DNA from: a virus
DNA: 64,000 nt
IMG/VR virus record: IMGVR_UViG_3300027749_000038
Direction: 5' to 3' (one strand)
A model generated the notes under the pieces. The model made no database searches. It had not been told where the DNA came from and saw only the letters and a list, made by a program, of their open reading frames with translations. A program made the position numbers and the translations under genes. Positions 8,607-57,044 of this stretch are shown here, piece after piece. How positions within the stretch are numbered: position 1 is the stretch's first letter; each line of letters starts with the position of its first letter.

Positions 8607-8607
8607 T

Positions 8608-9116: not shown

Positions 9117-9120
9117 CATT

Positions 9121-10393: not shown

Positions 10394-10397
10394 TAAT

Positions 10398-10691
10398 ATG
10401 AAGACAAAATTACAAAGTCAGTTTGAAAATGTATATCGTTCGGTGATCAACGAACAACAAGGTCCTAGTGTGTATGCGATATTTGATGCAAATGCATCAG
10501 ATACGAGTATGGATCTTCTTATTGGTTTGTATCTAGATAAAGGACAAGCCGATGAAGCATGCAGAGAATATGAACAAGAGAACTTTAGTGACACAGGATA
10601 TGGCCCAAGACCTTATGTAATTTCACTTCCTACAGGTGGAGCAGCCAGTGACTCATATCTTCGCAGTGCAAAAGATCATATGCAACACTAG
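10398..10691 (+). CDS. late small protein with leader (..VINE|Q), distantly similar to 6069..6296
   Basis: GTAAATA 5 nt before ATG; VYAIF...LLIGLYLDKGQADEA. Confidence 0.7.
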   Translation: MKTKLQSQFENVYRSVINEQQGPSVYAIFDANASDTSMDLLIGLYLDKGQADEACREYEQENFSDTGYGPRPYVISLPTGGAASDSYLRSAKDHMQH

Positions 10692-10710
10692 GTATAAATA
10701 AATAAAAGGT

Positions 10711-11625: not shown

Positions 11626-11626
11626 G

Positions 11627-12448: not shown

Positions 12449-12450
12449 TC

Positions 12451-12480
12451 ATAAATAATCATAAATAATCATAAATAATA
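12451..12480 (+). repeat. 3x 10-bp tandem repeat ATAAATAATC of the late promoter motif
   Basis: ataaataatc ataaataatc ataaataata directly before ATG 12483. Confidence 0.9.
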
Positions 12481-12482
12481 TT

Positions 12483-12785
12483 ATGAAGTCCAAAGACCAA
12501 CAACTCTTAGAAGAAGCTTACAAGAAAGTTATAGAAGGTCATCAAATTATGACTCCTAAACAGGAAGTTCGTTATCAGGAACTAACCGATGCTGGTTATG
12601 AATTTGACTATTGGAAAGAAGAGAACCTTGTTATGACCCGGAAAGAAAGAGGAACAGAACATACTCGGAACTTGGACTCTTTAATGGTTCTTCCAGATGG
12701 AAGATGTATGGATTTAGATCCACAAGAGGATGAAGAACCGGAAAGGAATGATTGGGATGAGTGGGATGATATGACTCTACGTTAA
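12483..12785 (+). CDS. putative virion-internal acidic protein with MKSKDQQLLEEAY leader
   Basis: First 40 nt identical to those of 10711. Confidence 0.78.
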   Translation: MKSKDQQLLEEAYKKVIEGHQIMTPKQEVRYQELTDAGYEFDYWKEENLVMTRKERGTEHTRNLDSLMVLPDGRCMDLDPQEDEEPERNDWDEWDDMTLR

Positions 12786-15998: not shown

Positions 15999-16059
15999 AT
16001 CCCCAAGGACCGGGTTTTGGTTAACATAGGAAATTAAATGAGCGAAGGTCCTTGGGGAT
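15999..16059. repeat. 13-bp perfect inverted repeat with 35-nt loop upstream of the HNH gene
   Basis: atccccaaggacc / ggtccttggggat; homolog of 3932-3992 with two compensatory pair changes. Confidence 0.95.
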
Positions 16060-16181
16060 TTGATTCCCTTCCCGGGAGTTTTCATTCCCTGCCCAATTAT
16101 CTATAACTCGTTCTCAATCAAGGTTCTTCCCCTAGAGAAAAAAAGATGGAAGTTCCCTGTACTTTGACTCATAATATTCTC

Positions 16182-16358
16182 ATGATTCGTTCCTTGTCCC
16201 TCTTCGCGTTCCTGGTGTCCCTCACCTACCTCACCTGCCCGGACATCCTCACCTACGCAACCCTCACCGTCCTAGCAGTCCTTTCCCTGGCGATCCACCT
16301 TTCCCACTACGTCCTCCTGGGACTGTTGTTCTTCGCAGTCATCCTCATCGCTCGATAA
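16182..16358 (+). CDS. early small membrane protein
   Basis: Very hydrophobic 58 aa; promoter copy at 16147. Confidence 0.7.
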   Translation: MIRSLSLFAFLVSLTYLTCPDILTYATLTVLAVLSLAIHLSHYVLLGLLFFAVILIAR

Positions 16359-16396
16359 GCCTTGTGTTTCCCCTCTTCCTCCTCCATAATAGAAAC

Positions 16397-16549
16397 ATGA
16401 TTAACGAATACGACATGTCCACCGTAGACAAGCTCAACCTCATCGCTCAGGTGTTCGGGAAGATCGCGATCAACTTCTGGCCGGTGATTGTCCTGGGAAT
16501 CGTTGCAGCAGTGATCCTCCACAAGCATGAGACCCGCAGGACGCGCTAA
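16397..16549 (+). CDS. early single-TM protein
   Basis: Promoter copy at 16362; hydrophobic segment followed by a basic tail. Confidence 0.7.
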   Translation: MINEYDMSTVDKLNLIAQVFGKIAINFWPVIVLGIVAAVILHKHETRRTR

Positions 16550-16557
16550 TTATTAAC

Positions 16558-16788
16558 ATGGGACTCGAGAAAGCAATTCAATATGGTAAAGAACACCGTC
16601 AGCCTTATCGCGGAAGTAAAGCTTGGGATTCTCATTGTAGGAATCACAACGCTTGTGACTATTGTAGGAACAATCGACTTCACGCCGACCAAGTCCGGGA
16701 ATATAGTGCCCGAGAAGAACCCCTGGATTGGGAACTCGACCAGAGCCTCTATCCAGAGTGGTTTGAGCTAGACGGAGTCGCGGAATAG
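16558..16788 (+). CDS. conserved phage protein (KAIxxGKEHRxPYRGSKA..CRNH..C.YC family)
   Basis: Recognisable Cys/His motif family of unknown function. Confidence 0.8.
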   Translation: MGLEKAIQYGKEHRQPYRGSKAWDSHCRNHNACDYCRNNRLHADQVREYSAREEPLDWELDQSLYPEWFELDGVAE

Positions 16789-16825
16789 AGTGGAGGTTCC
16801 CCACATTAACCCTTAAGATATTAGC

Positions 16826-17011
16826 ATGATGAACGAAACAGAGAAGAAGTACAAAGCCAACGTCAAGCGCCTCGAACGGTTCGCCAAAGCTTTCACCAAG
16901 CTGAAGGTGAAGTTCCCCGAGGTCGTAGTCAGAGGAGACCAGAACGGATTTGCCCAGGCGACCATCCACGGTCTCCCAGGAGAGCAAGCCCGGGCCTATT
17001 TGAGCAACTAA
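16826..17011 (+). CDS. early hypothetical protein
   Basis: Promoter copy at 16791. Confidence 0.75.
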   Translation: MMNETEKKYKANVKRLERFAKAFTKLKVKFPEVVVRGDQNGFAQATIHGLPGEQARAYLSN

Positions 17012-17050
17012 GCCTTGCGGTTCCCCACATTAACCCTTAAGATAATCACA

Positions 17051-17248
17051 ATGAGTTACAAAGTCCTCACCCGTTCACTCGCCACCGACAAGTACCCCTA
17101 CCGGACCCATTCCGAGCACGAGACCCTCTGGCAGGCTATGTCAGTAGCTTCCCGGCTTGAGAAGAACACCGAGCTGGATGTCCTGGTCGAGCTCACCGAC
17201 AATGAGATCGTCAAAGTTCCCTTCAACGTCCTCGCTCTTGAAGCTTGA
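17051..17248 (+). CDS. early hypothetical protein
   Basis: Promoter copy at 17015. Confidence 0.75.
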   Translation: MSYKVLTRSLATDKYPYRTHSEHETLWQAMSVASRLEKNTELDVLVELTDNEIVKVPFNVLALEA

Positions 17249-17280
17249 GCTTCCCCACATAAACCCCTAAGATAAACACC

Positions 17281-17466
17281 ATGACAGACATCCTCGAATT
17301 CCGCAAGCAACTCGCAGCCAAGCACCCTAAGCTCGAACAGGTGATGAGAGGGCCAGCGCCTTCCCTCAAACTGCAAGCCACGATGCAGAAGTTCAGCCAG
17401 CAGCTCTGCTTGGCTAGGGCCAAGCAGAGGGAAGGAGTGGTCCTCAAGACTCCCGAGCGTGAGTAA
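17281..17466 (+). CDS. early hypothetical protein
   Basis: Promoter copy at 17245. Confidence 0.7.
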   Translation: MTDILEFRKQLAAKHPKLEQVMRGPAPSLKLQATMQKFSQQLCLARAKQREGVVLKTPERE

Positions 17467-17504
17467 GTGTTGAGCTTCCCCCTTATAACCCTTAAGATAT
17501 TTAC

Positions 17505-17888
17505 ATGATGAATGACACGATGATTGCCCGCACCGAACTCGAAGAGCTGATGGATGAGTATTGTGACTACCACAAGGACGTCCACGGTGTCAAGGCTCGT
17601 TGGATCTACAACACCGGAGTCACGGTAGAGGAGCTGAAGAGGATGCTCGCTAGCCTGGAACGTCAGTACCACGAGCAGGTCGAGTTCGAGCGCAAGCAGT
17701 CGGCTCGCAATGAGCAGGCAGCTCGGGAGCAGATCCGGGTCCTCATGCAGCACGGGGCTCAGGACGTGGCGATGGCGATCCGCTGGTTACACGATGCTCA
17801 GGACACCCAAGGGGACAATCGGTTCCTCGACTTCGACCTGGGATGTACCTACGGCTTCATCGACAGCCTTCTCAAGAACGGCCTCTAA
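17505..17888 (+). CDS. early conserved hypothetical protein (Y.DYHKDVHGVKAR motif)
   Basis: Promoter copy at 17470. Confidence 0.8.
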   Translation: MMNDTMIARTELEELMDEYCDYHKDVHGVKARWIYNTGVTVEELKRMLASLERQYHEQVEFERKQSARNEQAAREQIRVLMQHGAQDVAMAIRWLHDAQDTQGDNRFLDFDLGCTYGFIDSLLKNGL

Positions 17889-17932
17889 GAGAGGTGTTGA
17901 GCTTCCCCAGTATCTCCTTTAAGATCTTAACA

Positions 17933-18169
17933 ATGAGCAATACGATTACTCAAGCAGACCTCTACAACGACTACCTCACCGCCTTTCGAGCCTTGCACCC
18001 TTGTGACGCCAGAGACCTGAGACGCTGTGCCAGGATAGAGCTTCTGAGTCGCGGGGACCGAGAGATTAATTCTGGTGACGTAGACAACCTGGTGTATACC
18101 TGGTTCAAACTATACGAAAGCTTCAGCCAGGAAGTGATCGACGGACTCCGAGACTATTACCTCGACTAA
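17933..18169 (+). CDS. early hypothetical protein
   Basis: Promoter copy at 17897. Confidence 0.75.
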   Translation: MSNTITQADLYNDYLTAFRALHPCDARDLRRCARIELLSRGDREINSGDVDNLVYTWFKLYESFSQEVIDGLRDYYLD

Positions 18170-18241
18170 AGACTTTAGTCGGGGTAAATTACCTCGACTA
18201 AGGTGTTGAGGTTCCCCAGTACATCCTTTAATATCTTAACA

Positions 18242-18538
18242 ATGAAAGACACCATGACCACAAAAGCAACCATCATCGAATCCGTCAAGACTGCAATTGC
18301 CACAGCAACGACCAACCTTATCAACTTCAGTAATGGAGGCATGTTGGTTGATGAAGAACTCGATATGGCTGTACATGCCTTTGTTGTTAATGGAGTTCTC
18401 TTCTCTACAGGATGGGCTGATACTACTCACTACAGCTTCCTGCAGAATGATGGCCCTCTAACTTGCGATGATGCTAAATTACTTCTCTGGTGGTTAGAAC
18501 AGAAAGATACTTGGATAAACAAGATTGGTTGCAACTAG
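18242..18538 (+). CDS. early hypothetical protein
   Basis: Promoter copy at 18206. Confidence 0.75.
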   Translation: MKDTMTTKATIIESVKTAIATATTNLINFSNGGMLVDEELDMAVHAFVVNGVLFSTGWADTTHYSFLQNDGPLTCDDAKLLLWWLEQKDTWINKIGCN

Positions 18539-18595
18539 GACCCCAAGCTCCTCCTCTGGTGGCTCGAACAGGGTGACACCAAGATCAACAAGTAG
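18539..18595 (+). pseudogene. orphan 3' relic DPKLLLWWLEQGDTKINK* duplicating the upstream gene's C-terminus
   Basis: Matches DAKLLLWWLEQKDTWINK of 18242..18538 but uses GC3-rich codons; no start codon. Confidence 0.75.
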
Positions 18596-18633
18596 TCCTT
18601 GCAGTTCCCCACTTAGTCCTCTAATATTATTAC

Positions 18634-18945
18634 ATGATGAAGAACACCAAGAAAGAGTTAGTCAAGGTCAGCAGCCAGTTCCGCCTCTTAGCTCGGCATG
18701 CAGGCTGTGTAGAGATCATTGAGGAACGCTATGCCAACCCTAGCAAGCCTAACCTCACCAAGCTCTGGGTCGTGAATGGGGTCCATGAGTTCAAGCAACA
18801 AGGGCATGCTCGCACCTATATGCGTATGCTGGCAGACAGGGTCGGTGGGGATCAGAAACTTACTGACGAGACCTACAAGGCAGCTTGGGATAATGTCATT
18901 CCCACCTACACCCCAGAAGCTAAGGCAGCAGCCATTCTGGGTTGA
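18634..18945 (+). CDS. early hypothetical protein
   Basis: Promoter copy at 18599. Confidence 0.8.
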   Translation: MMKNTKKELVKVSSQFRLLARHAGCVEIIEERYANPSKPNLTKLWVVNGVHEFKQQGHARTYMRMLADRVGGDQKLTDETYKAAWDNVIPTYTPEAKAAAILG

Positions 18946-18979
18946 GCTTCCCCACATCCTCAGCTAATATAGATACAAG

Positions 18980-19237
18980 ATGAAGAACACATACACCCGA
19001 GTCCTCAGCACGAAGCAAGTCAACGTCCTCGCCAAGGAAGCCAAGCGCGTCCAGTACATCGTCAATAAGGTCCGCGTCTTCCACGCCTCTTCGGTGGATG
19101 CCATCACGGTGCTTGACAATGAGGACAATGCCCTGGTGTTCAAAGCCCTCCGCGCGAACAGAGACACCTGGATAGTGACCTTCTCGAAGACCTACTGGCA
19201 GAGTCCAGAGGACGCCGTACTTGCCCAGGGCATCTAA
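18980..19237 (+). CDS. early hypothetical protein
   Basis: Promoter copy at 18942. Confidence 0.8.
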   Translation: MKNTYTRVLSTKQVNVLAKEAKRVQYIVNKVRVFHASSVDAITVLDNEDNALVFKALRANRDTWIVTFSKTYWQSPEDAVLAQGI

Positions 19238-19279
19238 GTAGTCCGTGAGCTTCCCCATTACCTAAGCTAAGATATAAAC

Positions 19280-19498
19280 ATGATGAAGAACAAATACATC
19301 CAGTCCGAAGCAGCCCAGTCCCACGCCGCAGAGATCCTCAAAGGAGGACATGTCTCAGTGGCTGAGGCAGTCCAGATCATCCTCCAATACATCTCCACCT
19401 GCCGTGGCCGAGCGAACCACGCCGACGGAGTCTCCTACATGGAGGCCGTGCTCGAGCTAGTGTGTCAGGCCTGTGAGCCAGAGCAGGTGGTCCTCTAA
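19280..19498 (+). CDS. early hypothetical protein
   Basis: Promoter copy at 19245. Confidence 0.75.
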   Translation: MMKNKYIQSEAAQSHAAEILKGGHVSVAEAVQIILQYISTCRGRANHADGVSYMEAVLELVCQACEPEQVVL

Positions 19499-19540
19499 GT
19501 AGGCCTTGCGGTTCCCCATCTCCTCTGCTACTATTATTAC

Positions 19541-19798
19541 ATGATGAAGAACGACATGAACCACACCACCGCTGAAGACCATACCACCCCAATCGTCGGC
19601 GCCTCCTACCTCTGGCAGGGCATGCCCTGTGCAGTCCTGGAGACGAGGCCTAGTGAGCTCCGCACCTACACGTGGGATGTGAAGGTGGAGTACTTCAGCA
19701 AGGCCGACAAGTGCTACCTCTCTCTTTGGACTCCGTGGCTTCCAGGATGCTTCCTCCTGACCTTCAAGCCTGGTGGTCAGCTGACCCGAGTAGCGTAG
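19541..19798 (+). CDS. early hypothetical protein (last of the array)
   Basis: Promoter copy at 19506. Confidence 0.75.
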   Translation: MMKNDMNHTTAEDHTTPIVGASYLWQGMPCAVLETRPSELRTYTWDVKVEYFSKADKCYLSLWTPWLPGCFLLTFKPGGQLTRVA

Positions 19799-19810
19799 GC
19801 GGTGAGTCAA

Positions 19811-20072
19811 GCCCCAGGGGCGGAGAGGGACCTCTGGGGCGTTAGAGAGGCGCGGCAATTTTTTACACCGTGGTATGAAAGGACCCCGGTGTTTTGGAAA
19901 CACCCTATAGCTGGGGAAGGCGGCTGGGTGGGGTAGGGACTATTCGGGTACCTAGTCCATATCCCTCCTATACCGCTCTATTAGCTAGTGGGTACCCCCT
20001 ATGGCCTTTCAACGGAGACGGCTTGCGAAAAGGCTAAAAGCATCCGGTCCGCGGGGTACCCACTTTCATATC
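19811..20072 (+). ncRNA. candidate structured RNA (hairpin plus multi-branched domain)
   Basis: Stems 19811-20/19831-40, 19872-81/20063-72, 19888-94/19898-904, 19920-19976 and 19989-98/20053-62; G.U pairs all fit the + strand. Confidence 0.5.
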
Positions 20073-20381: not shown

Positions 20382-21416
20382 ATGATTTCGTTTAAGGCTT
20401 TTTATCGGGTGAATGCTATTCTCAATGAAGGGGGGCTTGCTTCTACTCTGACTCAACAGACTGTTATTAATCCTAGGACTATTGCGATAGTGAAACCTAA
20501 GATAGAGAGTTTGATGGCTCAGTATAATGAATATGCCAGAACGAAGAACTTGCCACCAGCTAAGTTTGGAGCCTTTCTAGGAAGCACGGCTCACTATCAA
20601 GCAGATGAAGCCGATCCTAATACTCAGAAGAATGTCTACGGAGATATAGACATACAAATAGAGGTTCCTCCTTATGAAGAGACTCCTCTAAAGAACCAAA
20701 GCCAATGGTACAAAGTATTCGGACAATTTATCCAAGAGGTTCAACCAGAAGGCATTGCTCCAGACTCTCCAGAAGGGCATCCTATCATTAACATAGGAGG
20801 AGATAATTGGGTCCAGGTAGACTTCATAATTCATCAAAGCCATCTATTAGAATGGGGTAGGTACAGAGCTACTCCAGAACGAGGTCTCAAAGGAATGTTA
20901 TATGGAAATCTGATTTCTGTTTTAGGAGACTGTTTAAATCTCAGTATTCAACACAACGGAGTCCAACTCAAAGTAAAGGAAGGAAAGAGACAACCCTTTG
21001 CTTCCGCCAGAGGACAATTTGAATTGCATACGGTTTCCACCAATCCTCGAACCTTTATCTTAGATATTCTCAAGTATGAAGCAGGTACAGACGCCATGGT
21101 AGCCACAGCCGATCCTTTACTCAAAGCCAATCCAGGAATTAATACTGAAGACGTTAAAGCAGAATATCTAATAAAAGGAATCAAAGGTTTAGTAAAGAGT
21201 TTCGATCGAAACGGAATGTTAGGCAAAGGAAACCTATCGGAATATCAAACTCCTGAAGACTTCCTTAATAAATTTTGGGAACTCTATACAGATAAGATAG
21301 ACGTTACTCTTAATGCTACTAAATGGGATAAAGCTCCAGCAGAAAAGGTAGCTCAGGCTCATGCCAAGATCAAAGGAGATCTGGCTAAGGTTAAAAAGAT
21401 TTTTCAATCTATTTAA
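20382..21416 (+). CDS. Pol-beta-superfamily nucleotidyltransferase-like protein with CTS-like leader
   Basis: GST...GDIDI and VQVDF motifs; MISFKAF...ILNE|GG leader. Confidence 0.7.
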   Translation: MISFKAFYRVNAILNEGGLASTLTQQTVINPRTIAIVKPKIESLMAQYNEYARTKNLPPAKFGAFLGSTAHYQADEADPNTQKNVYGDIDIQIEVPPYEETPLKNQSQWYKVFGQFIQEVQPEGIAPDSPEGHPIINIGGDNWVQVDFIIHQSHLLEWGRYRATPERGLKGMLYGNLISVLGDCLNLSIQHNGVQLKVKEGKRQPFASARGQFELHTVSTNPRTFILDILKYEAGTDAMVATADPLLKANPGINTEDVKAEYLIKGIKGLVKSFDRNGMLGKGNLSEYQTPEDFLNKFWELYTDKIDVTLNATKWDKAPAEKVAQAHAKIKGDLAKVKKIFQSI

Positions 21417-39098: not shown

Positions 39099-39719
39099 GG
39101 GGGCGTATTGGTTTCGACTGAGCGCTGAAAACCTTAGTTGCAATCCGAGGAAGTCTGGTTGGCCTCGTTAAAATCTCTGGACAAAACAAATAAATGCAAC
39201 TGATAATACAGAAGCACTCTTAGCTGAAGCAACGCACATCATCAACAACTTCGAGGACTACCTCGCAGAAGAAGAGATGTACGATCTCGCAGCCTAACAA
39301 ACAGAAATGGATCCTATTAAAATTTCTGGAGTACCACAATAGGTTTGAGTAAAATCGTGAACCTCAGGAAAAACAATCGAGAGGAGTTGGGCCCCTTGCA
39401 GTCCAACAGGTAGACCTTAACTAGTTAGCAGCCTATGGTCTTTAAGAGCTAACAAAATATGATTGTAGACGCTAAAGTCTAAGTTTTCAGGACAGCGGTT
39501 CAACTGAAATGCAGGGTCGGCTATTTGGAAACGAATAGTTCGTAAGGTGTATATCGGCGAACGGTTTAATATCCCAACACCGAGAGAAATCATAGAAATA
39601 TGAGACTCGTAGAGACTACCATCACCTACCTAAAGTAGAAATACTAAGGTAAAGGAATAGTCCAGACTACAAACACGTATGTGGTAGTGAAAACTATAGT
39701 AGTATGCCGCTCGCCTCCA
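39099..39719 (+). ncRNA. ssrA: tmRNA, interrupted by a group I intron
   Basis: GGGGGCG/CGCCTCC-A acceptor stem with G3.U70; GGTTTCGAC; helix 2 (ctgaaaac/gttttcag, gcaatc/gattgt); tag ORF 39196-39297 ending YDLAA*; T-arm agcgg-ttcaact|ccgct. Confidence 0.93.
39506..39706 (+). mobile_element. ORF-less group I intron (201 nt) in the tmRNA T-loop
   Basis: Follows an exon U and ends in G; R element gtagagacta (39609-18) and S element aaggaatagtcc (39652-63) form P7; removal restores a perfect T-arm. Confidence 0.88.
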
Positions 39720-46123: not shown

Positions 46124-48772
46124 TTATACCTTAAAAAATTCTTTAAAAGATATAACACCTTCAGTCAACGGTAATCCCATTCCTTCTTTAGTTGCTTGAT
46201 ATAATGTTTTGCCGTCTACAGTTATATTATTAGAAACTCCTGTGGCTTGTTGAAATCCTTGTTCATTATTTTCTGAAGCCATTTTACGTGCTAAAGAACC
46301 GGAGATACCACTTATACCTTCTGTGGCATCTGGATCTCGATCTCCGCTGCTTACAAAAGTCAAAGCAACTTGTTCACGACCTTTCGGATCTGTATTAAAG
46401 TCTTTAGAACGGACTGGTCCACTATTCCAAGAAATTAATATTTTTTCAAGACTTCCTGGATTATCACCCAAGCGATCTGAACCAGCCACAAAGATCATAT
46501 TTCGAAATCCTTTTCTATACAAATAATTTGCAGCATAAATGGGATTCAAAACTTTTTCATCCACCATATAAGAGGCATACTCGGGATATATTTTCTTAAC
46601 AAATTCAGCTTTTGTTTCTGGATTCAATGGATCTTTTTTAGAATTTTGAGTATTACTTAAAAATATAAAAGAATTATTTCCACCTTCTTGAATAGTTTTC
46701 TTCATCAATGCACTGTGGCCTAATGTGGGCGGATTCATTCTTCCGAAACAAAATGCTGCTGGAGTCATTTGTCTCTTGGCTACTAACTCATCTTCATTGT
46801 TGGCGTTCTTTGCAAAGTTGGCTCTGCTGAAACCGAGGCGATCAATTAACTTTAATTTATCTTTACCAGCTCCAAAAACATATCCTTCATGTGAGTCTTC
46901 TTCACCGATGCGAGCTTGAATAGGAAGACCAAATTGCTGCAAATCTATTTGCCTCTTAATATTAATTTTAAGATCTGTAAGAGCTGCCCAAATAGACCAC
47001 ACCCCTAGAAGTCCTGCCGCTCCTTCTTTATACAGCCAACCATCTTTATTGGTTCCTAATAATTTTAAAGAAGCTCCTTCTGATAATTTGGTTTTAAGAA
47101 ATGTTAAAAATCTAGGGACTATATTTTCAGCTAAGTTGTTTTCACTTAACATAAACGTAATAAATGGTCCCATGGCTGAGATAACACTTTTAGCTTTCAT
47201 TTCTGCTATCTCTTCCAGGAATCTCTCTACTGTCGCCTTGTGTTGTTGTATAACTCCTTTAGTGTAGTTTAATATATTTTCTGATAAGGCTATTTTAGGT
47301 TTTTCTTCAATCTCTCCAACTAAAAATGTTATTCCTTCATCTTGTTTTAAACCTTGTAAACCTCTTAGAGGTCTGTCTTCTGCACCCATTCCAGGCACAA
47401 AAGTGTGTACGGCTATACCACCTACACTTCGGGAAATACGATGACCTATAGTAGAATCTATTTTAACTCTGTATTTTACAGTATTAGGTTCAAAGGAATA
47501 ATACCCACTTTCTGTTTTAGGCATTCCAGACCACATTAAATCTCCGAAAAAATACTCATCTTCTTTTTGAGGTACACATCTTTTTAGAGACGGTACCATA
47601 ACTGTAGCAGCTTCCCAAAGACTTTGTCTAGTGGCTCCTCTTGATTTATCATATTCTTCTATGGTAGTAAATTCTAATTTACCTTTAACCATCTTATCAA
47701 ACATGTGTTTATCTACAAACAAAAACTGGCCTTCTGGATTAGTTTTTGTTGGTTTTTGCTTCCAACCAAAAATAACAGCTGGAAAACCATCCCACTTAAT
47801 AGTAACTGTATCACTATTCTTAACTAAAGAAGCCAATTCTTTAAATGTCTTTTCAGCTCCAGCAACACCTCCTTTGATAATACTATCTTCCGGATGCTCG
47901 ATGCCTTCCAACAATACTTTTGAAGCCGCGAAATAACTTTCTTGTGGATTGGGATAAAATTCTTTAATAGCATTCCATTTTTCTGGTTGGTTTATTAATT
48001 TATTTTTAATACCGGAGAGACTTGCTAAGTCTCTAGCGGTTGCATCTAAACCTAATAGAATCTGGGCAATTTTGTTTTTATCATCTGCTACTACTTGATT
48101 AGTATCTCGGTCCACTAAACCTCTATCTGGACTAAATTGTAAATTACCCTTTTCTTCTTTGGTTTTAGGGTCTATAAAAATAGTTTTACTGGCTAGTTTT
48201 GCTAAAAGTGGATAAATCTTCAACCAAAGATCTCCTCCCCTCATAGCAGAATCTTTAGTAAAATCATGTGTATGTATTTCCCAAGCTGATTTAGGTCTCA
48301 AGATTAAATCTACTGAATGGCTTCTGTCATTGACTGTATACTGCAAAGTCAAAGTACCAGGGGCGGTTTTATAACCATTTTCAGACATGTATTTTGCCAA
48401 CTCCCATTTACTGGCCTTTAAACGTAATTCATTTTCGTCTCCTGGAGGTTTTTTGTATTTAGGCCCAGCTTGTTGTTTGAGCTCGCCTAAATATTCGTTA
48501 ATATCTTTTGGAAACTTTTGAACCAATTCTATAGGATCTATTAAAATATCAATATCCCCTGAGTCTTCTCTGCCTCCTCCACCATATGGATGTTCGGGGT
48601 CAAAACTACCAGCACCTCCAGCAGACCAATAAGAATGTAAACCTGCTTTTTGAAGAATGGGTTGCAGAATTGATTTAGCTGTTAAAAAGTCTTGTTTATT
48701 TACACGAGACAATTCTATGCCTTGTTTTGCTAAAATTTTGCCAGCCTCGGTAAAAAATTCTTTAAAATTCAT
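46124..48772 (-). CDS. three-domain fusion: Pol-beta-like NTase + ATP-dependent ligase-like (DUF6267-type) + HIGH-family cytidylyltransferase-like
   Basis: GAGS..DSGDIDIL..SVDL; TIKWDG, FGDL, EGYV, KLK; FGRMNPPTLGH, VAGSDR, ISGS..R; MNFKEFFTE leader. Confidence 0.75.
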   Translation of the reverse strand: MNFKEFFTEAGKILAKQGIELSRVNKQDFLTAKSILQPILQKAGLHSYWSAGGAGSFDPEHPYGGGGREDSGDIDILIDPIELVQKFPKDINEYLGELKQQAGPKYKKPPGDENELRLKASKWELAKYMSENGYKTAPGTLTLQYTVNDRSHSVDLILRPKSAWEIHTHDFTKDSAMRGGDLWLKIYPLLAKLASKTIFIDPKTKEEKGNLQFSPDRGLVDRDTNQVVADDKNKIAQILLGLDATARDLASLSGIKNKLINQPEKWNAIKEFYPNPQESYFAASKVLLEGIEHPEDSIIKGGVAGAEKTFKELASLVKNSDTVTIKWDGFPAVIFGWKQKPTKTNPEGQFLFVDKHMFDKMVKGKLEFTTIEEYDKSRGATRQSLWEAATVMVPSLKRCVPQKEDEYFFGDLMWSGMPKTESGYYSFEPNTVKYRVKIDSTIGHRISRSVGGIAVHTFVPGMGAEDRPLRGLQGLKQDEGITFLVGEIEEKPKIALSENILNYTKGVIQQHKATVERFLEEIAEMKAKSVISAMGPFITFMLSENNLAENIVPRFLTFLKTKLSEGASLKLLGTNKDGWLYKEGAAGLLGVWSIWAALTDLKINIKRQIDLQQFGLPIQARIGEEDSHEGYVFGAGKDKLKLIDRLGFSRANFAKNANNEDELVAKRQMTPAAFCFGRMNPPTLGHSALMKKTIQEGGNNSFIFLSNTQNSKKDPLNPETKAEFVKKIYPEYASYMVDEKVLNPIYAANYLYRKGFRNMIFVAGSDRLGDNPGSLEKILISWNSGPVRSKDFNTDPKGREQVALTFVSSGDRDPDATEGISGISGSLARKMASENNEQGFQQATGVSNNITVDGKTLYQATKEGMGLPLTEGVISFKEFFKV

Positions 48773-48832
48773 ACTATAAGAATGTATCTATTTAGTCTAT
48801 TTTACTATAAATATAGTATAGAAATAAAAACT

Positions 48833-49015
48833 ATGCCATACAAAATAAGAAAAAAGGGAAAGGGTTATAAGGTTTGCAAAACTTCTGGAAAATGTTATAG
48901 TAAAAAACCACTTTCTAAAAAAATGGCTCAAAAACAAAGAGCTGCCATAGCTATTAACACTTATGAGAAATTTAATTATTTCTCCAATTTAATTGAATCA
49001 GTTTTAAATGAATAA
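48833..49015 (+). CDS. small basic protein (MPYKIRKKGKGYKVCK...), possibly DNA-binding virion protein
   Basis: Very Lys-rich; late motif upstream. Confidence 0.7.
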   Translation: MPYKIRKKGKGYKVCKTSGKCYSKKPLSKKMAQKQRAAIAINTYEKFNYFSNLIESVLNE

Positions 49016-49202: not shown

Positions 49203-49721
49203 ATGGATAAAAATGTTAAAACTCTTATCAATCAAACAGACATCCGTAATGTTATTAAGGGTTTGGGTACTACTATTTCTTATGATTACAGAAACAAAGA
49301 TCTGAATGTCGTTTGTTTATTAGAAGGCAGTTTGGTTTTTACAGCCAATCTTTTATTGCAAATTAAGATTCCAGTCAATCTTTATTCTATTAAAGTTACT
49401 AGTTATGAAGGTAAAACCAGCACCGGAAAACTTAGTTACAATGTAAAAGACCTCGATTTTTGTAAAGATAAGGACATTCTACTCATAGACGATATTTTAG
49501 ATTCGGGATTAACATTGTCTACAGTGGTTTCTGAAATGGAACAAGCTGGAGCACACTCCGTTAGAACCTGTGTACTTCTCAATAAACAAGTAAATAGATC
49601 TGTTAATATTGTTCCAGATTATAAAGCCTTTGATATTGATAATGAATTTGTGATAGGATATGGCATGGATTATAATGGATTATATCGTAATTTGCCTTAT
49701 ATTGGAGTGTTGAAAGGATAA
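49203..49721 (+). CDS. hpt: hypoxanthine phosphoribosyltransferase
   Basis: PRPP motif LLIDDILDSGLTL, LLNK, FVIGYGMDY...RNLPYI. Confidence 0.92.
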   Translation: MDKNVKTLINQTDIRNVIKGLGTTISYDYRNKDLNVVCLLEGSLVFTANLLLQIKIPVNLYSIKVTSYEGKTSTGKLSYNVKDLDFCKDKDILLIDDILDSGLTLSTVVSEMEQAGAHSVRTCVLLNKQVNRSVNIVPDYKAFDIDNEFVIGYGMDYNGLYRNLPYIGVLKG

Positions 49722-50633: not shown

Positions 50634-51049
50634 GTTGGGAAGAATATGCTTTGCGCATCGCTGAGGTGGCTTCTTTAAGATCTGAAGATTTGCGTAAAGT
50701 AGGCGCTTGTGCTTTAGACTATAGCAACCGAGTTATTGGAGTTGCATATAATGGTTTGGCTCCTGGTATTAACGTAGATTCTTCTTTTTGGAAAGATAGA
50801 GATAAAAGAAGACCTTTCATGATTCACGCTGAAGCTAATCTTTTATCGTTGTTTGAACGTAATAAATGTAAGCTCCTCGCTTGTACGTTACTTCCCTGTT
50901 CTAGTTGTGCTACTTTAATAGCCGCACACGGAATTAAAACCGTAGTTTATAAAGAATTATATAATAGAGATCAGGCAGCTTTAGATATTTTTAAATTCTA
51001 CAACATAGAATGTCTAAATATATCTAACTATGAAAGAAAAGATTTTTAA
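50606..51049 (+). CDS. dCMP deaminase
   Basis: KVGAC, AYNG, HAEAN, PCSSC. Confidence 0.9.
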   Translation: MEHISTKRISWEEYALRIAEVASLRSEDLRKVGACALDYSNRVIGVAYNGLAPGINVDSSFWKDRDKRRPFMIHAEANLLSLFERNKCKLLACTLLPCSSCATLIAAHGIKTVVYKELYNRDQAALDIFKFYNIECLNISNYERKDF

Positions 51050-52064
51050 ATACGGCTGTATTCCTCAACCAGAAGATCCAAGAGATCTTAGATATGTTAA
51101 AACATCTGCCTCTTTAAATTTTGATTCTATAGATCTTAGGCCAAATTGTTCTGATATAAAAGATCAAGGAAATCTAGGAGCTTGTTCGGCTTTTGGATCT
51201 ACAGAATTATTTAATTTTGTTCGCAACAAAAATAAATTAGTTTCTTGGAATCCATCTCCTTTATTTACATATTATTCTACGAGAAAACTTACCAATCAAG
51301 AAGCAACAGATTCTGGAGCGTGTGTAAGAGATGCATTAAAATCTACTGTGAAGGATGGAGTTGCTATGGAAAGAATATGGCCATATGACATTTCTAAATT
51401 TGCAGAAAACCCTCCTCAAGATGTCTGGGATAATGCTGAAAAACATCAGACCTTACAATATCTTAGCATAGACAGCACAGATAAAAATGCTATTTTAAAT
51501 TGTTTAAATGAAGGATATCCCTTTATTTTTGGTATTAAACTTTATCAATCTTTTAATTCTATTTCTGTACTTTTTGGTGGTCGTGTACCAGAACCTAATA
51601 GAAATACCGAAAAATTATTAGGTGGCCACTGTATGATGGCTGTAGGTTATTTAAAAAATCTAGACGGTTCTGAATCAATAATTGTTCAAAATTCTTGGGG
51701 TAAAGATTGGGGTGATCAAGGATTTTGTTATATTCCAATGAATTATTTTATGTCCAATGATACATTTGATTTTTGGACCATTAGATCCACGGAGTCTTGT
51801 GATACAGATACTCCCGACCCAACTCCAGAGCCAATAGTACCGCCGGCTCCGACTCCAATTCCTGAACCCGAGCCAATAGTGCCTCCAACCCCAACTCCGG
51901 CACCAATAGTGCCTCCAAAACCTACTCCAGAGCCAATTCCGACCCCGGAACCAATTGTGCCTCCGATTCCTGCTCCGGAAGAAACTATAAGCATCTGGAA
52001 AAAACCAGTTACTTATTTTATCATATTTTTTGTTATAGCTTCTTTATTGTTCTTATTTTTGTAA
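51030..52064 (+). CDS. papain-like C1A cysteine peptidase with Pro-rich linker and C-terminal TM anchor
   Basis: QGNLGACSAF, GGHCMMAVGY, QNSWG..WG; PEP/PTP tract; hydrophobic C-terminus. Confidence 0.88.
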   Translation: MKEKIFKYGCIPQPEDPRDLRYVKTSASLNFDSIDLRPNCSDIKDQGNLGACSAFGSTELFNFVRNKNKLVSWNPSPLFTYYSTRKLTNQEATDSGACVRDALKSTVKDGVAMERIWPYDISKFAENPPQDVWDNAEKHQTLQYLSIDSTDKNAILNCLNEGYPFIFGIKLYQSFNSISVLFGGRVPEPNRNTEKLLGGHCMMAVGYLKNLDGSESIIVQNSWGKDWGDQGFCYIPMNYFMSNDTFDFWTIRSTESCDTDTPDPTPEPIVPPAPTPIPEPEPIVPPTPTPAPIVPPKPTPEPIPTPEPIVPPIPAPEETISIWKKPVTYFIIFFVIASLLFLFL

Positions 52065-52106: not shown

Positions 52107-52538
52107 ATGCAAACCAATCAAAAAAAAGAATTAAATAATTTTGATAGTGAAGGATATGTTAAACACAATCCTTTTGGTCTGGATCATTTTGGTGCAATGG
52201 CTGAAAAATTTGCTAGATTTTTCGGTACACCAAAATTTTTAATAGGACAGTCTATATTTGTTGTTATATGGATTACCTATAATTGTTTTCAAAATTTAAC
52301 TTTTGATCCATATCCATTTATTCTTTTAAATTTAGCATTTAGTACTCAAGCGGCTTATGCTGCGCCTTTAATTTTATTAGCTCAAACCAGACAAGCCGAT
52401 AGAGATAAAGTTTGGGAAAAATCTGATGCAGAACATCGAGAATTGTTACATAAAGATTCCTCTAGAACAAATAAAGAAATACTTTTGCGTTTAGAAAAAA
52501 TAGAAGAACTTATTTTTTCTTTGAAACAAAAGAAATAA
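52107..52538 (+). CDS. DUF1003-family membrane protein
   Basis: FDPYPFILLNLAFSTQAAYAAPLILLAQTRQADRD. Confidence 0.88.
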   Translation: MQTNQKKELNNFDSEGYVKHNPFGLDHFGAMAEKFARFFGTPKFLIGQSIFVVIWITYNCFQNLTFDPYPFILLNLAFSTQAAYAAPLILLAQTRQADRDKVWEKSDAEHRELLHKDSSRTNKEILLRLEKIEELIFSLKQKK

Positions 52539-53229
52539 AATTTTCCACTGAAAGTTTTTTGTCTTGTATGTTGATTAAATGCTGGGATAGTTTGTCCAAG
52601 AGACCTTCATTTCTCAGTTTCTTAAAGACTAAATTGTCTACACCAAACTCACCGTCTTTTATTAAACCTTCCTTACGATCTTGTGAAATTTTCTTTTTAA
52701 TTTTATTCAAAAATTCTAAATTAGTATTTTTGCTAATATTATGGAGTATGAGATCCTGATATTCTTTAAATTTTTTGTGGAATAATTCTTCATCTACATT
52801 TATAGATTCTTCATCAATTAGTACTGGATGCAAAATCCATTTATTATCTAAAATACTATACACCCCAGTTGAAGTGTGTGTTTCTTCTGTATTCTGAATA
52901 TAAACTTCAACCTCTCTGCCTAAAATCTTTATGTCGTGTTCATTATTCCATAAAGATTTTTTAGCCAGTACATAATCTCTGGTTAATTCTTCTTCACATT
53001 TAACCTTACTAAACGGTACTAGAATATGTAAATCTATATCACTAGAGGAAGTATAGTTGTAATTTGCAGAAGATCCAGTTAATGTAATGTCTTCTGGTTC
53101 TTGGTCTATTTTAATAGTGTCATAAAAAGTTGCTGCTATTTCCAATAACTTTTCTTGAATCTCTGGTTTCAATACATCATTATCATCCCACAAATCTGGA
53201 TTTAATTTGTAATGAATTTGTGGCCTCAT
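52510..53229 (-). CDS. Pol-beta-superfamily nucleotidyltransferase
   Basis: TGSSANYNYTSSSDIDLHI, EVEVY. Confidence 0.8.
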   Translation of the reverse strand: MRPQIHYKLNPDLWDDNDVLKPEIQEKLLEIAATFYDTIKIDQEPEDITLTGSSANYNYTSSSDIDLHILVPFSKVKCEEELTRDYVLAKKSLWNNEHDIKILGREVEVYIQNTEETHTSTGVYSILDNKWILHPVLIDEESINVDEELFHKKFKEYQDLILHNISKNTNLEFLNKIKKKISQDRKEGLIKDGEFGVDNLVFKKLRNEGLLDKLSQHLINIQDKKLSVENFISFVSKKK

Positions 53230-54326: not shown

Positions 54327-55382
54327 TTAGATTGTGCAACTTCCACCAACACAGCCACTTCCTTCGTCTGTAGCAGATTGTTTATCTCCGTCATAGGTAT
54401 TGCTGTAATAAAGAGTTTTTACACCCATACTATAAGCATATAACAATTCTTTAAGAATTACCGAATCCGGCAATGCCTTATTTGGATAATGATCATAATT
54501 GTAATACAGATTTGCTGAGATAGCCATATCTGTCCATTTTTGAATTGCTGCTACTATATTGATATAACCAGTGTTATCTGGCATATCAAATTGTAATGTA
54601 TACTTGTTTTTATATGTGGAATAATTTGGAACCAACAAAGGCACTGAATTAGCTTTAGAACCTTTATAGGTAAGCAAAGACCTAGGAGGTTCAATACCGT
54701 TGGTAGAATTTTGAATAACAGAACTAGATTCACACGGCATCATGGCGGTCAATGTAGAATGTCTCATACCATGAGCCAACACTTTCTGTCTTAATTCTTC
54801 CCAATCTAAAGAAGGTTTGCGGGTTACTACTTGATCTACTTTCTTTTTATAGGTGTCTATAGGCAAGATACCTTGAGAATATTTGGTGGTATTAAATTTT
54901 TCACACGGTCCCTTTTCTTTGGCTAGCTCTATAGAAGAGGAAATAAGGTGGTATTGTATTTTTTCCATCAAAGTATCTACAAAGTTAGGAGCCTCTGTAT
55001 CCATATACTTGAGATTATTCTTAGCTAAGAGAGCTGCTAAATTAGTAATTCCTACACCGAGACTTCTACGTTTTCTTGTAAAATTCTCTGCTGCTTTGGT
55101 GAAGTATTCTTGATAATCAATAATTTCATCTAGCATGCGTACAATTGTATCACAGGTATCTATTAAATCTTGATCATCTTTAATTTCTAACACATTAATA
55201 GCAGAAAGAACACAAATACCAATTTCCCCTTCTGGATCATCTATATGTTGAATTGGTTTGGTGGGATGAGTAACTTCAACACAATTGTGTACCAATATCT
55301 TATTGGCGTAAAAATTGCGGTTGTCTTTTACACTGATATCATATACTGCTTCTCGGTTTAACACTTTTTTAATTTTAATCAT
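54327..55382 (-). CDS. nrdA: RNR alpha C-terminal half with 33-aa split-intein C fragment (55284-55382)
   Basis: MIKIKK..VYDISV..NFYAN.ILVHN|CVEV; MPCESSS, GIEP, KTLYY. Confidence 0.92.
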   Translation of the reverse strand: MIKIKKVLNREAVYDISVKDNRNFYANKILVHNCVEVTHPTKPIQHIDDPEGEIGICVLSAINVLEIKDDQDLIDTCDTIVRMLDEIIDYQEYFTKAAENFTRKRRSLGVGITNLAALLAKNNLKYMDTEAPNFVDTLMEKIQYHLISSSIELAKEKGPCEKFNTTKYSQGILPIDTYKKKVDQVVTRKPSLDWEELRQKVLAHGMRHSTLTAMMPCESSSVIQNSTNGIEPPRSLLTYKGSKANSVPLLVPNYSTYKNKYTLQFDMPDNTGYINIVAAIQKWTDMAISANLYYNYDHYPNKALPDSVILKELLYAYSMGVKTLYYSNTYDGDKQSATDEGSGCVGGSCTI

Positions 55383-55394
55383 AATTCTTGTTTT

Positions 55395-57044
55395 TTAAAT
55401 TAAATTTAAAACATCTGACTCCAACAATTCACTAGCCTTAACATAACCTCGGTTGTTAGTGTAAATTAAATGTTCCGGTGTGCAACGAATGGTTTGATTA
55501 GTTTCTGTATCTGTAATTTCAACCAATTCTGCTTCGGGATGAGTCATTGTAGCTCCGGTGAGCAATTTAAATTCATTTTCTTGCGTATCTAGATTCTTGG
55601 ACCAAACGTACATTTCTTCTAAATCCTCTTTAGAATTATATAATTCTGTTATTTGTTCTAATGTTAAAACTGATGACATGAAATTGTTATCTTCTTTGTT
55701 TTTGATAAGACACAAAACTTCCGTGTCACCTGTAAGACACAGATTTGTCATTGAAACTCTTTCTAAGAAAGATCCGTGTTCATTACAATGATCCATATTC
55801 ATCACGTAATATCTTCCAGTCTCTGTTCTTTCTTTAGTAAATTGAGACAATAGAGCAGAAGCTTTGACCTTCCTTTTATACTTTATCGATTTATCTGCTT
55901 CACATTTTATATATAATTCATCAAACTGCGGAAGACCAAAAGATTCGGTCAATTCTGGAACTTCATGTGGAGAAAATAATGTTATAGTTTCATTTTTCAT
56001 GAAGCGCTCATAAAACAATTTTGAAAATTGAATTACATAATCTACTTTTCTAACTCGATTATCTTCAGTACCACCGTTATTTTTTAAAGAGAGAATATCT
56101 TCAATTTCATAATGCCAGATTGGAAAGTTAACCGTAGCTCCCCCTCCTCTGATACCATTTTGTTGACAAGACTTGACGGTGGCTTCAAATACTTTAAGAA
56201 AAGGAATAATTCCGGTATGAATAACACTACCTCCTTTGATCTCTGTGCCAATTCCTCTAATACGACCAAAATTCAATCCGATTCCGTATCTTTGAGTAGT
56301 AGCAAAACCAGCAGCAGTATTGGAACTAAAAATAGATTCCTTAGTGTCACCCACATCAATGAGACAACAAGACGCGTATTGTTTAAGAAGACCTCTAAGG
56401 CCAGCCATTTGCGGGGTAGGTAAATTGATTTTAAATTTACTGAATTTGTCGTATGCTCTTTTGACATAATTTAAACGGGTATTTTGAGAATAATTAATAT
56501 GGCTTACCATGGCTGCAAGCATATAAGCAAATTGAGGAGTCTCGAATATCTCCTTGTTCTTTCTATTTTGAATGAGATATTTGTCACACAATTGCTTTAA
56601 TCCAGAATAGGTAAAGTTGTAATCTCTGTCGTGATTAATTTTGTCATCTAATTTGTCTATCTCTGCTTTAGAATATTTTTCTAAAATTTCTGGATGATAT
56701 AGATTTTTATCTGTATTGTTTTTAATAAAATCATAAAGTCGTGGAGGATTTTTTCCACCCCATACATCTTTACGTATTTGATAATTCAATAATCTAGAGG
56801 CAACCCATTGATAATTAGGATTCTCTTCATTAAACAAATTAATAGAAGCGTCTATCAGTACCTTGTGAATTTCCTTAGTAGTAATGCCATCCGCTAAATT
56901 TAATTTAGTATTAATAGCTATGTCCGAAACACTAACTCCGGTTATATTTTGGGATCCCCATTTTATTACTTTGTATATGTTTTCTACATTAAATGGAACC
57001 CGTGTTCCGTCCCGTTTTGTAACGTGAAGAATTTTTTCACTCAT
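55395..57044 (-). CDS. nrdA: RNR alpha N-terminal half (ATP cone) with 114-aa split-intein N fragment (55395-55739)
   Basis: VTKRDG ATP cone, PTPQM, ASCCL; MTNL|CLTGDT..CTPEH. Confidence 0.92.
   Translation of the reverse strand: MSEKILHVTKRDGTRVPFNVENIYKVIKWGSQNITGVSVSDIAINTKLNLADGITTKEIHKVLIDASINLFNEENPNYQWVASRLLNYQIRKDVWGGKNPPRLYDFIKNNTDKNLYHPEILEKYSKAEIDKLDDKINHDRDYNFTYSGLKQLCDKYLIQNRKNKEIFETPQFAYMLAAMVSHINYSQNTRLNYVKRAYDKFSKFKINLPTPQMAGLRGLLKQYASCCLIDVGDTKESIFSSNTAAGFATTQRYGIGLNFGRIRGIGTEIKGGSVIHTGIIPFLKVFEATVKSCQQNGIRGGGATVNFPIWHYEIEDILSLKNNGGTEDNRVRKVDYVIQFSKLFYERFMKNETITLFSPHEVPELTESFGLPQFDELYIKCEADKSIKYKRKVKASALLSQFTKERTETGRYYVMNMDHCNEHGSFLERVSMTNLCLTGDTEVLCLIKNKEDNNFMSSVLTLEQITELYNSKEDLEEMYVWSKNLDTQENEFKLLTGATMTHPEAELVEITDTETNQTIRCTPEHLIYTNNRGYVKASELLESDVLNLI

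Follow-up and report, generated by a model that had tools for sequence, protein, structure and literature searches.

The open reading frame (ORF) analyzed here occupies positions 46124–48772 on the minus strand of a 64,000-nucleotide stretch of viral DNA (IMG/VR virus record IMGVR_UViG_3300027749_000038), the whole of which is referred to below as the window. The ORF (P0001) runs uninterrupted from an ATG at 48772 to a stop codon at 46124–46126 and encodes a protein of 882 amino acids (aa); the plus strand across the same interval is closed by many stop codons. The window is part of the genome of a large, T4-like phage with collagen-like tail fibres, a split NrdA, NrdB and a tmRNA gene. Three domains follow one another in the protein, namely, a minimal family X polymerase (Pol X)-like domain consisting of palm and thumb (aa 10–275; 47948–48745), a DUF6267 domain with a predicted ligase-superfamily adenylyltransferase fold (aa 291–655; 46808–47902) and a HIGH-motif nucleotidyltransferase domain (aa 670–867; 46172–46765), all coordinates within the ORF referring to the minus strand. 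We propose that the protein is a three-module nucleic-acid end-processing enzyme of the fill-and-seal type, acting most likely on DNA, and the probability of this reading is put at roughly 0.55.

Homologues were sought among 5.8 billion proteins, and conservation was scored in 20 full-length and 46 core homologues; residues of catalytic type were invariant or near-invariant across both sets. In the N-terminal domain, the helix-turn G-S of the Pol beta nucleotidyltransferase motif is represented by GAGS (aa 53–56; 48605–48616), with G52, A54, G55 and S56 invariant among the 20 full-length proteins. The metal-binding DxD (D73, D75) is part of the string SGDIDILID (aa 71–79; 48536–48562), in which, as in the residue preceding it, the aspartates D70, D73, D75 and D79 are invariant and which includes strand 74–78 of the domain model, and the third carboxylate, D155, likewise invariant, belongs to SVDLILRP (aa 153–160; 48293–48316) on strand 150–158. 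SGDIDILID is similar to the Pol beta string SGDMDVLL, and SVDLILRP likewise resembles its counterpart in Pol beta. The AlphaFold model of the domain (predicted local distance difference test, pLDDT, 83.5) matched family X polymerases in Foldseek (E about 1e-4) and in VIA (Z 9.4–9.6, root-mean-square deviation (rmsd) 3.0–3.9 Å over 160–180 residues), residues 143–335 of Pol beta, i.e., its palm and thumb, aligning with Z 9.6 and an rmsd of 3.3 Å over 169 aa. When the VIA comparison was made exhaustively with 48,161 PDB representatives, all eight matches with Z ≥ 8 were Pol X enzymes, including Pol beta (9.6), TdT (8.7), Thermus PolX (8.6), Pol lambda (8.5) and the African swine fever virus (ASFV) Pol X (8.1, aligned over 157 of 176 residues). 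These alignments span palm and thumb (model residues 18–253); TUTases, CD-NTases, CCA-adding enzymes and MenT-type toxins align to the palm alone. Since the matches over palm and thumb are to Pol X enzymes only and G55–S56, D73, D75 and D155 are invariant, the domain is, on the evidence of its predicted structure, a minimal Pol X and not a generic nucleotidyltransferase of the Pol beta fold. Thus, the Pol-beta-like domain of the preliminary description, which was made from the sequence without database searches, stands with regard to both motifs and fold and can be refined from a generic nucleotidyltransferase to a Pol X palm and thumb. The architecture as modelled points to DNA gap filling rather than to CCA-type addition or tRNA tailing.

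The middle domain was assigned by Pfam to DUF6267 (PF19782; aa 291–655, E 3.7e-31, 109.3 bits against a gathering cut-off of 27). The invariant residues of its 46 homologues are exactly those of ligase motifs I, III, IIIa, IV and V. Motif I, KWDG (aa 326–329; 47786–47797), contains the predicted AMP acceptor K326, and all four of its residues are invariant (n = 46), KWDG being present in the S-PM2 homologue too. Motif III, FGDLMW (aa 409–414; 47531–47548), with invariant G and D (D411), is located on strand 122–131 of the domain model, and motif IIIa, P-N-x3-Y, also invariant, on strand 148–153. Motif IV, HEGYVF (aa 628–633; 46874–46891), is invariant in all six residues and occupies strand 346–349, and motif V, KLKLIDR (K639, K641; aa 639–645; 46838–46858), follows the pattern K-x-K-x2-D-R on strand 356–359, with domain residues K355, K357, D360 and R361 invariant. 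All five motifs are placed on strands, as they are in ligases. Motifs IIIa and IV are separated by a helical insert of ~115 aa (aa 498–614; 46931–47281; helices 214–329 of the domain model), which is absent from canonical ligases. The 20 best VIA matches of the domain model (pLDDT 90.4) in the same PDB set were all ATP-dependent RNA or DNA ligases (Z 5.1–7.3, 166–201 residues), namely, among others, the RNA ligases Naegleria Rnl5 (7.3), Trl1 (6.1), T4 Rnl2 (6.0) and Rnl3, REL1 and T4 Rnl1 (5.7 each) and the DNA ligases LigIV (6.0) and Lig3 (5.6); capping enzymes come next, near Z 4. RNA ligases also headed the Foldseek list. As judged from the predicted structure, DUF6267 thus appears to belong to the covalent ligase/capping nucleotidyltransferase superfamily, within which it has diverged very far. 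The ligase motifs I, III, IV and V that had been read in this part of the chain are therefore borne out, and the AlphaFold domain parsing recommended earlier, run on the first two domains, gave confident models of both with the Pol X and ligase matches described.

In the C-terminal domain, Pfam recognized CTP_transf_like (PF01467; aa 675–769, 23.4 bits against a cut-off of 21), and two PHROG families annotated as 'cytidyltransferase' (3041 and 395) matched with E 9e-33 and 1e-19, respectively. The (H/T)xGH signature, FGRMNPPTLGH (aa 676–686; 46715–46747), is near-invariant, with PPTLGH at 681–686; GSDR follows at aa 764–767, and the second signature, ISGISGSLARK (ISxxxxR type; aa 820–830; 46283–46315), has near-invariant G, S, A and R, with ISGSLAR at 823–829. 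The domain leans faintly, on profile comparisons, to NadM/NadR-type nicotinamide mononucleotide (NMN) adenylyltransferases (NMNATs). The NMNAT model TIGR00482 matched the 882-aa protein far below threshold (E 0.087), and among the 46 family members, NMNAT models appeared, again below threshold, in the form of TIGR00482 in four (E ≥ 0.12) and PRK01153 in one. The top hhalign scores were those of E. coli NadR and two KVP40 NadR/NatV-like proteins (scores 23–28, probability <11%), and the comparisons as a whole (NCBIfam, Atlas features and hhalign against E. coli NadD, CoaD, HldE, RibF, NadR and the two KVP40 proteins) were weak and non-discriminating. The suggestion that this domain is an NMNAT was therefore not confirmed. 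Every motif named in the preliminary description was nevertheless found in its place and conserved, and the description of one chain with three nucleotidyl-transfer folds agrees with the conserved motifs, the Pfam assignments and the models of the first two domains.

The homologues fall into two kinds. About 20 full-length relatives have all three domains (59–88% identity, 878–900 aa), and more than 100 further proteins match residues 291–870 only (51–60% identity), with variable C-terminal extensions. The 882-aa protein matched 481 records of isolated phages, and its DUF6267 part was detectable in T4-like cyanophages, Pelagibacter phage HTVC008M, Methylophilales Melnitz phages, Stenotrophomonas phage DLP_6 and phage C48C1; the Pfam E-values of DUF6267 in S-PM2 d138 and HTVC008M gp127 ranged from 1e-111 to 1e-135. 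In these phages the HIGH domain is either fused to DUF6267 or encoded one to three genes away, and it accompanies DUF6267 in nearly all carrier phages examined; some Klebsiella and Pseudomonas phage records match the HIGH domain only. The DUF6267–HIGH core is widespread among T4-like phages of both marine and fresh waters. The Pol X-like part (aa 1–290) had only 46 phmmer matches among 1.84 billion cluster representatives, including stand-alone proteins of 280–296 aa and fusions with DUF6267 in either order. Two stand-alone Pol X-like genes on metagenomic contigs (P0121 and P0126) overlap the start codon of a DUF6267–HIGH gene, which shows that the 882-aa protein is a fusion of two translationally coupled neighbour genes. 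Independent fusions, one in the reverse domain order (P0151) and one lacking the HIGH domain (P0161), confirm, as far as domain arrangement can, that the polymerase and ligase modules are functionally linked. In HTVC008M, DLP_6 and Melnitz, the genes that precede DUF6267 are unrelated to the Pol X-like domain. A 344-aa ORF of the window (20382–21416) was considered as a Pol X relative and rejected, having no detectable similarity. DUF6267–HIGH proteins are also found fused to Cu/Zn superoxide dismutase, pterin-4a-carbinolamine dehydratase, the deoxynucleotidase NT5C and DUF5661 (ESM Atlas clusters and P0107, P0115 and P0120); these proteins reach 1308 aa, and the large ones may be polyprotein-like cargo.

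In three other phages, DUF6267 is found among genes of DNA replication. In S-PM2 the fused core (d138, T4-GC 71) is situated between gp43-UvsX-gp41-MazG and gp61, and in HTVC008M and Melnitz-2 the core follows UvsX and the primase-helicase; between the DUF6267 and HIGH genes of HTVC008M there is a Zeta/AAA_33 P-loop kinase resembling PNK (gp129, 6706–7368). Ten complete T4-like genomes carrying DUF6267 were surveyed for ligases: the ATP-dependent type (PF01068) was absent in eight of them and the NAD-dependent type (PF01653) in all ten. An Rnl2-type RNA ligase (PF09414) was found in only one of five genomes scanned, that of G001 (complete, 227 kb), whose homologue is 72% identical to the 882-aa protein. 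Searches with T4 gp30 as the query returned nothing in the window or in G001. Conversely, DUF6267 was not found in T4 or KVP40, of which the former carries the gp30 ligase according to its annotation and the latter a gp30-type ligase (PMC5349666). It has been reported that g30 homologues were not found in cyanomyoviruses, for which distant homologues that had escaped identification, or substitution by the host ligase, were considered (Clokie et al., PMC2984593). DUF6267 is a natural candidate for such a distant homologue; since the sample is small and phylogenetically clustered, the argument from ligase absence is suggestive only. The replication neighbours and the lack of a canonical DNA ligase in eight of the ten genomes point to an ordinary ligase role in replication or repair at least as strongly as to a role against defences.

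We infer from these data the following course of events. The Pol X module (aa 10–275) would fill a gap or extend a 3′ end by one or a few nucleotides; K326 of DUF6267 would take AMP from ATP and hand it to the 5′-phosphate, and the nick would be sealed. The helical insert probably replaces the missing OB or C-terminal specificity domain, and the HIGH module (aa 670–867) may produce or regenerate a nucleotide cofactor or an intermediate that the ligase step uses, the leading but weak guess being a reaction like that of NMN adenylyltransferases. The likely substrate is DNA, the DUF6267–HIGH pair being the presumed nick-sealing ligase of T4-like cyanophages and their relatives, to which the lineage of the 882-aa protein would have added gap filling. 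A bolder version, which we consider unlikely, is that DUF6267 and an obligatory HIGH partner together constitute a new class of DNA ligase that replaces gp30 in T4-like cyanophages, pelagiphages and freshwater relatives, with HIGH making or recycling a nucleotide donor to make up for the lack of an OB domain and motif VI, and that the form described here, fused to Pol X and targeted to the capsid, enters with the DNA before phage gene expression as a fill-and-seal or end-joining enzyme.

DUF6267 and its 'cytidyltransferase' partner are conserved in records of T4-like cyanophages, pelagiphages and related phages, among them some of the most abundant viruses of the sea, and no function has been proposed for the pair so far; no functional study of DUF6267, of this partner or of Pol X–ligase fusions in phages was found in the literature. 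Placement in the ligase superfamily gives DUF6267 a testable role, i.e., formation of Lys-AMP and nick sealing, and bears on a question raised in print (PMC2984593), namely, where cyanomyoviruses have their replicative DNA ligase. No Pol X–ligase fusion would have been described in a phage before the three-domain form, and the combination of a ligase fold with a HIGH nucleotidyltransferase suggests an unusual nucleotide supply for the ligase.

Several points weigh against the proposed enzyme. The ligase assignment of DUF6267 follows from the predicted structure: the alignments with ligases cover about half of the model (about 170–200 of 376 residues) at modest Z-scores of 5–7.3, and Foldseek against the PDB gave nothing significant, the best match being an archaeal RNA ligase (E 0.02). 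No sequence or profile method ties DUF6267 to known ligases. Neither phmmer with the whole protein nor a hidden Markov model of the 46 homologues returned anything from all PDB sequences even at E 10; nothing was obtained with PF01068 on the protein or with the family profile aligned by hhalign to T4 gp30 and the G001 Rnl2-like ligase, and a fold search of the ESM Atlas with DUF6267 returned DUF6267 clusters alone. This failure of sequence methods explains why the family has remained a DUF. No OB domain or motif VI follows motif V, the HIGH domain beginning ~30 residues later, and the role of the latter is left unexplained. The closest structures are RNA ligases (Rnl5, Trl1 and Rnl2), so that an RNA substrate is possible. 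The N-terminal module lacks the HhH and 8-kDa DNA-binding/lyase domains, with only ~20–40 residues before the palm and alignments that start at Pol beta residue 92 or 143; a full-length enzyme of the Pol beta type is thereby excluded, whereas a minimal Pol X is not, since ASFV Pol X also lacks these domains. Finally, DLP_6 and S-CRM01 carry DUF6267 together with a PF01068 ligase, and the ten genomes surveyed are mutually related and do not represent independent counts.

Among characterized enzymes, the protein is comparable in plan to the base-excision repair pair of ASFV, in which a Pol X of palm and thumb only is likewise partnered by an ATP-dependent DNA ligase. It differs from this pair in that the activities are joined in one chain or in overlapping genes and the host is bacterial. 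Moreover, its ligase part, a DUF, contains a helical insert, lacks an OB domain and is accompanied by an extra HIGH domain. The coupling of a small gap-filling or tailing polymerase to a ligase also recalls Pol beta/Lig3, Pol lambda or mu/Lig4 and LigD, which serve single-strand break repair or end joining. Bacterial LigD, a polymerase–ligase fusion, shows that bacteria fuse such modules; however, its polymerase has the archaeo-eukaryotic primase fold and not that of Pol X, none of these systems has a HIGH domain, and no Ku partner was seen here. With Rnl5, the ligase domain of Trl1, T4 Rnl2, T4 Rnl1 and Rnl3, DUF6267 shares KxDG, motifs III, IV and V and the lack of an OB domain (Z 5.7–7.3, 169–189 aligned residues), but there is no detectable sequence similarity, and the presumed specificity module of DUF6267 is inserted between motifs IIIa and IV, whereas RNA ligases append theirs at the end. 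The NadM/NadR-type NMNATs (e.g., the KVP40 NadR/NatV-like proteins) belong to the same HIGH superfamily and have a similar first signature, although no model match was significant; unlike them, the 882-aa protein has no Nudix or ribosylnicotinamide kinase partner.

The ends of the protein carry related peptides. It begins MNFKEFFTE|AGK and ends LTE|GVISFKEFFKV (the bar marking a candidate cleavage site), so that FKEFF occurs at aa 3–7 and again at aa 876–880. The leader MNFKEFFTE (aa 1–9; 48746–48772) resembles the T4 capsid-targeting type and ends in phi-x-Glu; the C-terminal tail L-T-E|G-V-I-S-FKEFF-K-V (46127–46171) consists of an L-x-E site followed by the second FKxFF copy. A third candidate site, V-L-L-E|G, lies in the linker (aa 276–290; 47903–47947; pLDDT <50), which is disordered in the models and in which E289 is invariant. 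The leaders in the T4 records are MKTFKEF for IPI, MKTYQEFIAE|A for IPII and IPIII and MELITE|LF for Alt, and the FKEF core is identical in IPI and in the 882-aa protein. The first 10 residues of IPIII suffice for capsid targeting, residues 4 and 7 being important for targeting and 8 and 10 for processing, and the protease gp21 cleaves after L/I-x-E (PMC9026906); in T4 Alt, both ends are trimmed, the sites being ITE-6 and LTE-619 (PMC5694885).

The peptides are a property of the family. The leader pattern M-x(1-2)-phi-x-[EDQ]-phi-phi was found in 113 of 119 members, compared with 0.5% at internal methionines, and [LIV]-x-E stands directly before G-x-x-HPED, the start of DUF6267, in 106 of 120. 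This linker site is at residues 16–17 in the two-domain forms and at 287–289 (LLE|G) in the 882-aa protein, where it separates what would once have been the products of two genes. The S/G/N-(x0-3)-F-K-x-F-F tail of the 20 three-domain homologues comes immediately after a Glu, with P3 mostly L and otherwise I, V or K, the proteins ending ...GLPL-x-E|S/G...FKxFF.... Short Pol X-like homologues start with MGGN..., exactly at the predicted cut, and G001 encodes a T4-type prohead protease (PF03420). Thus, the packaging motifs claimed earlier for both ends are real, family-wide and T4-like as peptides, while 'packaging' is an interpretation of them. According to this interpretation, the protein would enter the prohead, be trimmed or split in it and reach the cell along with the DNA, a possibility that, judged from the peptides, falls somewhat short of an even chance; should the end peptides act as they do in T4, the capsid would here deliver an enzyme of DNA repair. 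The likeness to T4 IPI–III and Alt extends to a leader of 9–10 residues with aromatics at the targeting positions and a phi-x-Glu end, and that to Alt, also a large enzyme, to candidate cleavage sites at both ends. In contrast to Alt, for which this is not described, the C-terminal motif repeats the N-terminal one, and in contrast to the T4 proteins generally, packaging is here a prediction from the sequence and the phage has another, more widely shared leader.

An explanation that comes nearly to an even chance is that the terminal FKEFF peptides are intrinsic amphipathic helices serving oligomerisation, autoinhibition or docking to the replisome or clamp, the protein being cytoplasmic only. 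In favour of such helices, the leader tracks the protein family across many phages (the 113 of 119 members mentioned above), so that it may be a built-in part of the enzyme; other proteins of the two phages hardly ever have it, the motif occurring in the window in the 882-aa ORF only and in the 227-kb genome of G001 at ~4 ORF starts; and AlphaFold places residues 3–16 as a helix on the domain. Moreover, a different 10-aa leader, MRxKDxILLE, is common to six other genes of the window and seems a better candidate for the cargo signal of this phage than the FKEFF type. The candidate N-terminal site has Phe at P3, where several relatives have L or I, which is a further point against packaging. On the other side, the T4 IPI leader has exactly the same FKEF core, the leader, linker and C-terminal tail of the 882-aa protein are each bounded by a gp21-like phi-x-Glu site (PMC9026906), and the MGGN... 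homologues begin exactly at the predicted cut. The cyanophage members have no FKEFF leader, which counts against packaging, but since they work without it, the leader would be an add-on rather than an intrinsic part of the enzyme.

Upstream sequences leave the timing of expression unfixed. A ACTAAATA box (48789–48796, minus strand) is located 16 nt before the ATG of the 882-aa ORF and agrees with the T4 late-promoter core TATAAATA at six of eight positions. The 12–13 nt surrounding it are kept upstream of the G001 homologue (72% identity), the ACTAAATAGAT box being 16 nt 5′ of the ATG here and 6 nt 5′ in G001, and the remaining spacers have diverged. However, CTAAATA or TATAAATA precedes nrdA too, in both the window phage and G001, and a CTAAATA box shared with nrdA is another point against the packaging part of the proposal. 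No perfect TATAAATA was found on the coding strand upstream of the ORF; the copy at 48806–48813 is oriented oppositely and serves a small plus-strand gene. Sigma-70-like sites upstream were no commoner than in shuffled sequence.

The six genes with the other leader (7029–12785) have unrelated bodies and begin with MR(D/N)(K/R)D(T/S)ILLE or MKSKDQQLLE, several of them with CTAAATA or TATAAATA 5–10 nt before the ATG; from their sequences they look like a cargo set in the style of the T4 internal proteins with a capsid-targeting sequence particular to this phage. In Melnitz, three of the four module genes (15, 17 and 18) have leaders resembling T4 capsid-targeting sequences (MKKFSEIIEA, MKKFSELTSE and MQGFKTFLSEA).

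As for the substrate, it is unlikely that the protein repairs RNA, in particular tRNA. In that case, broken tRNA or mRNA would be sealed by the ligase-like domain, an untemplated activity of the Pol X-like domain would rebuild or tail 3′ ends, and HIGH would supply a cofactor; delivered early, the protein would counter anticodon nucleases or further defences directed at RNA. Untemplated extension of 3′ ends is within the abilities of TdT and Pol mu, and TdT is among the top matches of the N-terminal domain. The best structural neighbours of DUF6267 are RNA ligases (Rnl5 7.3, Trl1 6.1, T4 Rnl2 6.0, Rnl3 and Rnl1 5.7), and like RNA ligases, it has no OB domain; the PNK-like P-loop kinase between the ligase and HIGH genes of HTVC008M would also suit RNA repair. 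Nevertheless, the ranking is by our count a tie, DNA ligases lying within one Z unit of the RNA ligases (LigIV 6.0, Lig3 5.6), and the N-terminal domain fits a templated Pol X palm and thumb and not the architectures of CCA-adding enzymes or TUTases. Furthermore, G001 already has an Rnl2-type RNA ligase, yet no DNA ligase, and the core sits in DNA replication modules. The view of the preliminary description that the protein counters anticodon nucleases or NAD-depleting defences is less well supported than the fill-and-seal reading and is kept as a rival, in this form and in the next.

It is very unlikely that the protein is in essence a cofactor enzyme, in which HIGH, as an NMN adenylyltransferase, would rebuild NAD+ against NAD-depleting defences or recycle NMN from the host NAD-dependent ligase, and DUF6267 would use the cofactor or adenylylate a target other than nucleic acid: the signature GRMNPPTxGH does resemble the GR(F/M)xPxHxGH of NadM/NadR-type NMNATs, the sole named sub-threshold matches are NMNAT models (TIGR00482 in 4 of 46, PRK01153 in one), the top hhalign scores belong to E. 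coli NadR and the two KVP40 proteins, and 430 bp upstream, on the opposite strand, there is a gene for a type I phosphoribosyltransferase, but these NMNAT matches are far below significance (E 0.02–0.1; hhalign probability <11%), neither NAMPT nor Nudix was found as a partner within the window, the phosphoribosyltransferase is neither co-oriented nor conserved with the ORF, and the invariant ligase motifs with a Pol X partner indicate nucleic-acid ends. A fill-and-seal enzyme acting on DNA is thus the reading that we retain.

In the window, the 882-aa ORF is the sole minus-strand gene among plus-strand neighbours. In window order, a lysis cassette lies upstream of it and a small basic protein, the type I phosphoribosyltransferase, an HNH nuclease and a dCMP deaminase are encoded downstream. 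The first of these genes (48806–49015, plus strand), divergent from the 882-aa ORF, has a perfect TATAAATA 19 nt before an ATG at 48833, which opens a very basic protein of 60 aa (MPYKIRKKGKGYK...) without a Pfam match; the start at 48782 given for the listed 77-aa ORF is probably too far upstream. The phosphoribosyltransferase gene (49203–49721, plus strand; PF00156, E 5e-22) begins 430 bp from the start of the 882-aa ORF.

Other features of the window were recorded in passing. A block of ~4 kb (16000–20000) has 52% G+C within a genome of 35% G+C; ORFs in all its frames stay within ~190 aa, and neither tandem repeats nor, even at E 1, Rfam matches were detected in it. The tmRNA gene (39107–39506) was recognized by Rfam (RF00023; 65.7 bits against a gathering score of 47), and ARAGORN made no call. 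A papain-family cysteine peptidase with an acidic repeat tail is encoded at 51030–52064 (plus strand; PF00112, E 3e-14), with CTAAATA 9 nt before its ATG. A small nucleotidyltransferase of the NTP_transf_2/poly(A)-polymerase-like type (52510–53229, minus strand) adjoins nrdB, and NrdA is encoded by two adjacent ORFs (54327–57044, minus strand) that correspond to positions 59–493 and 488–795 of PHROG 84.

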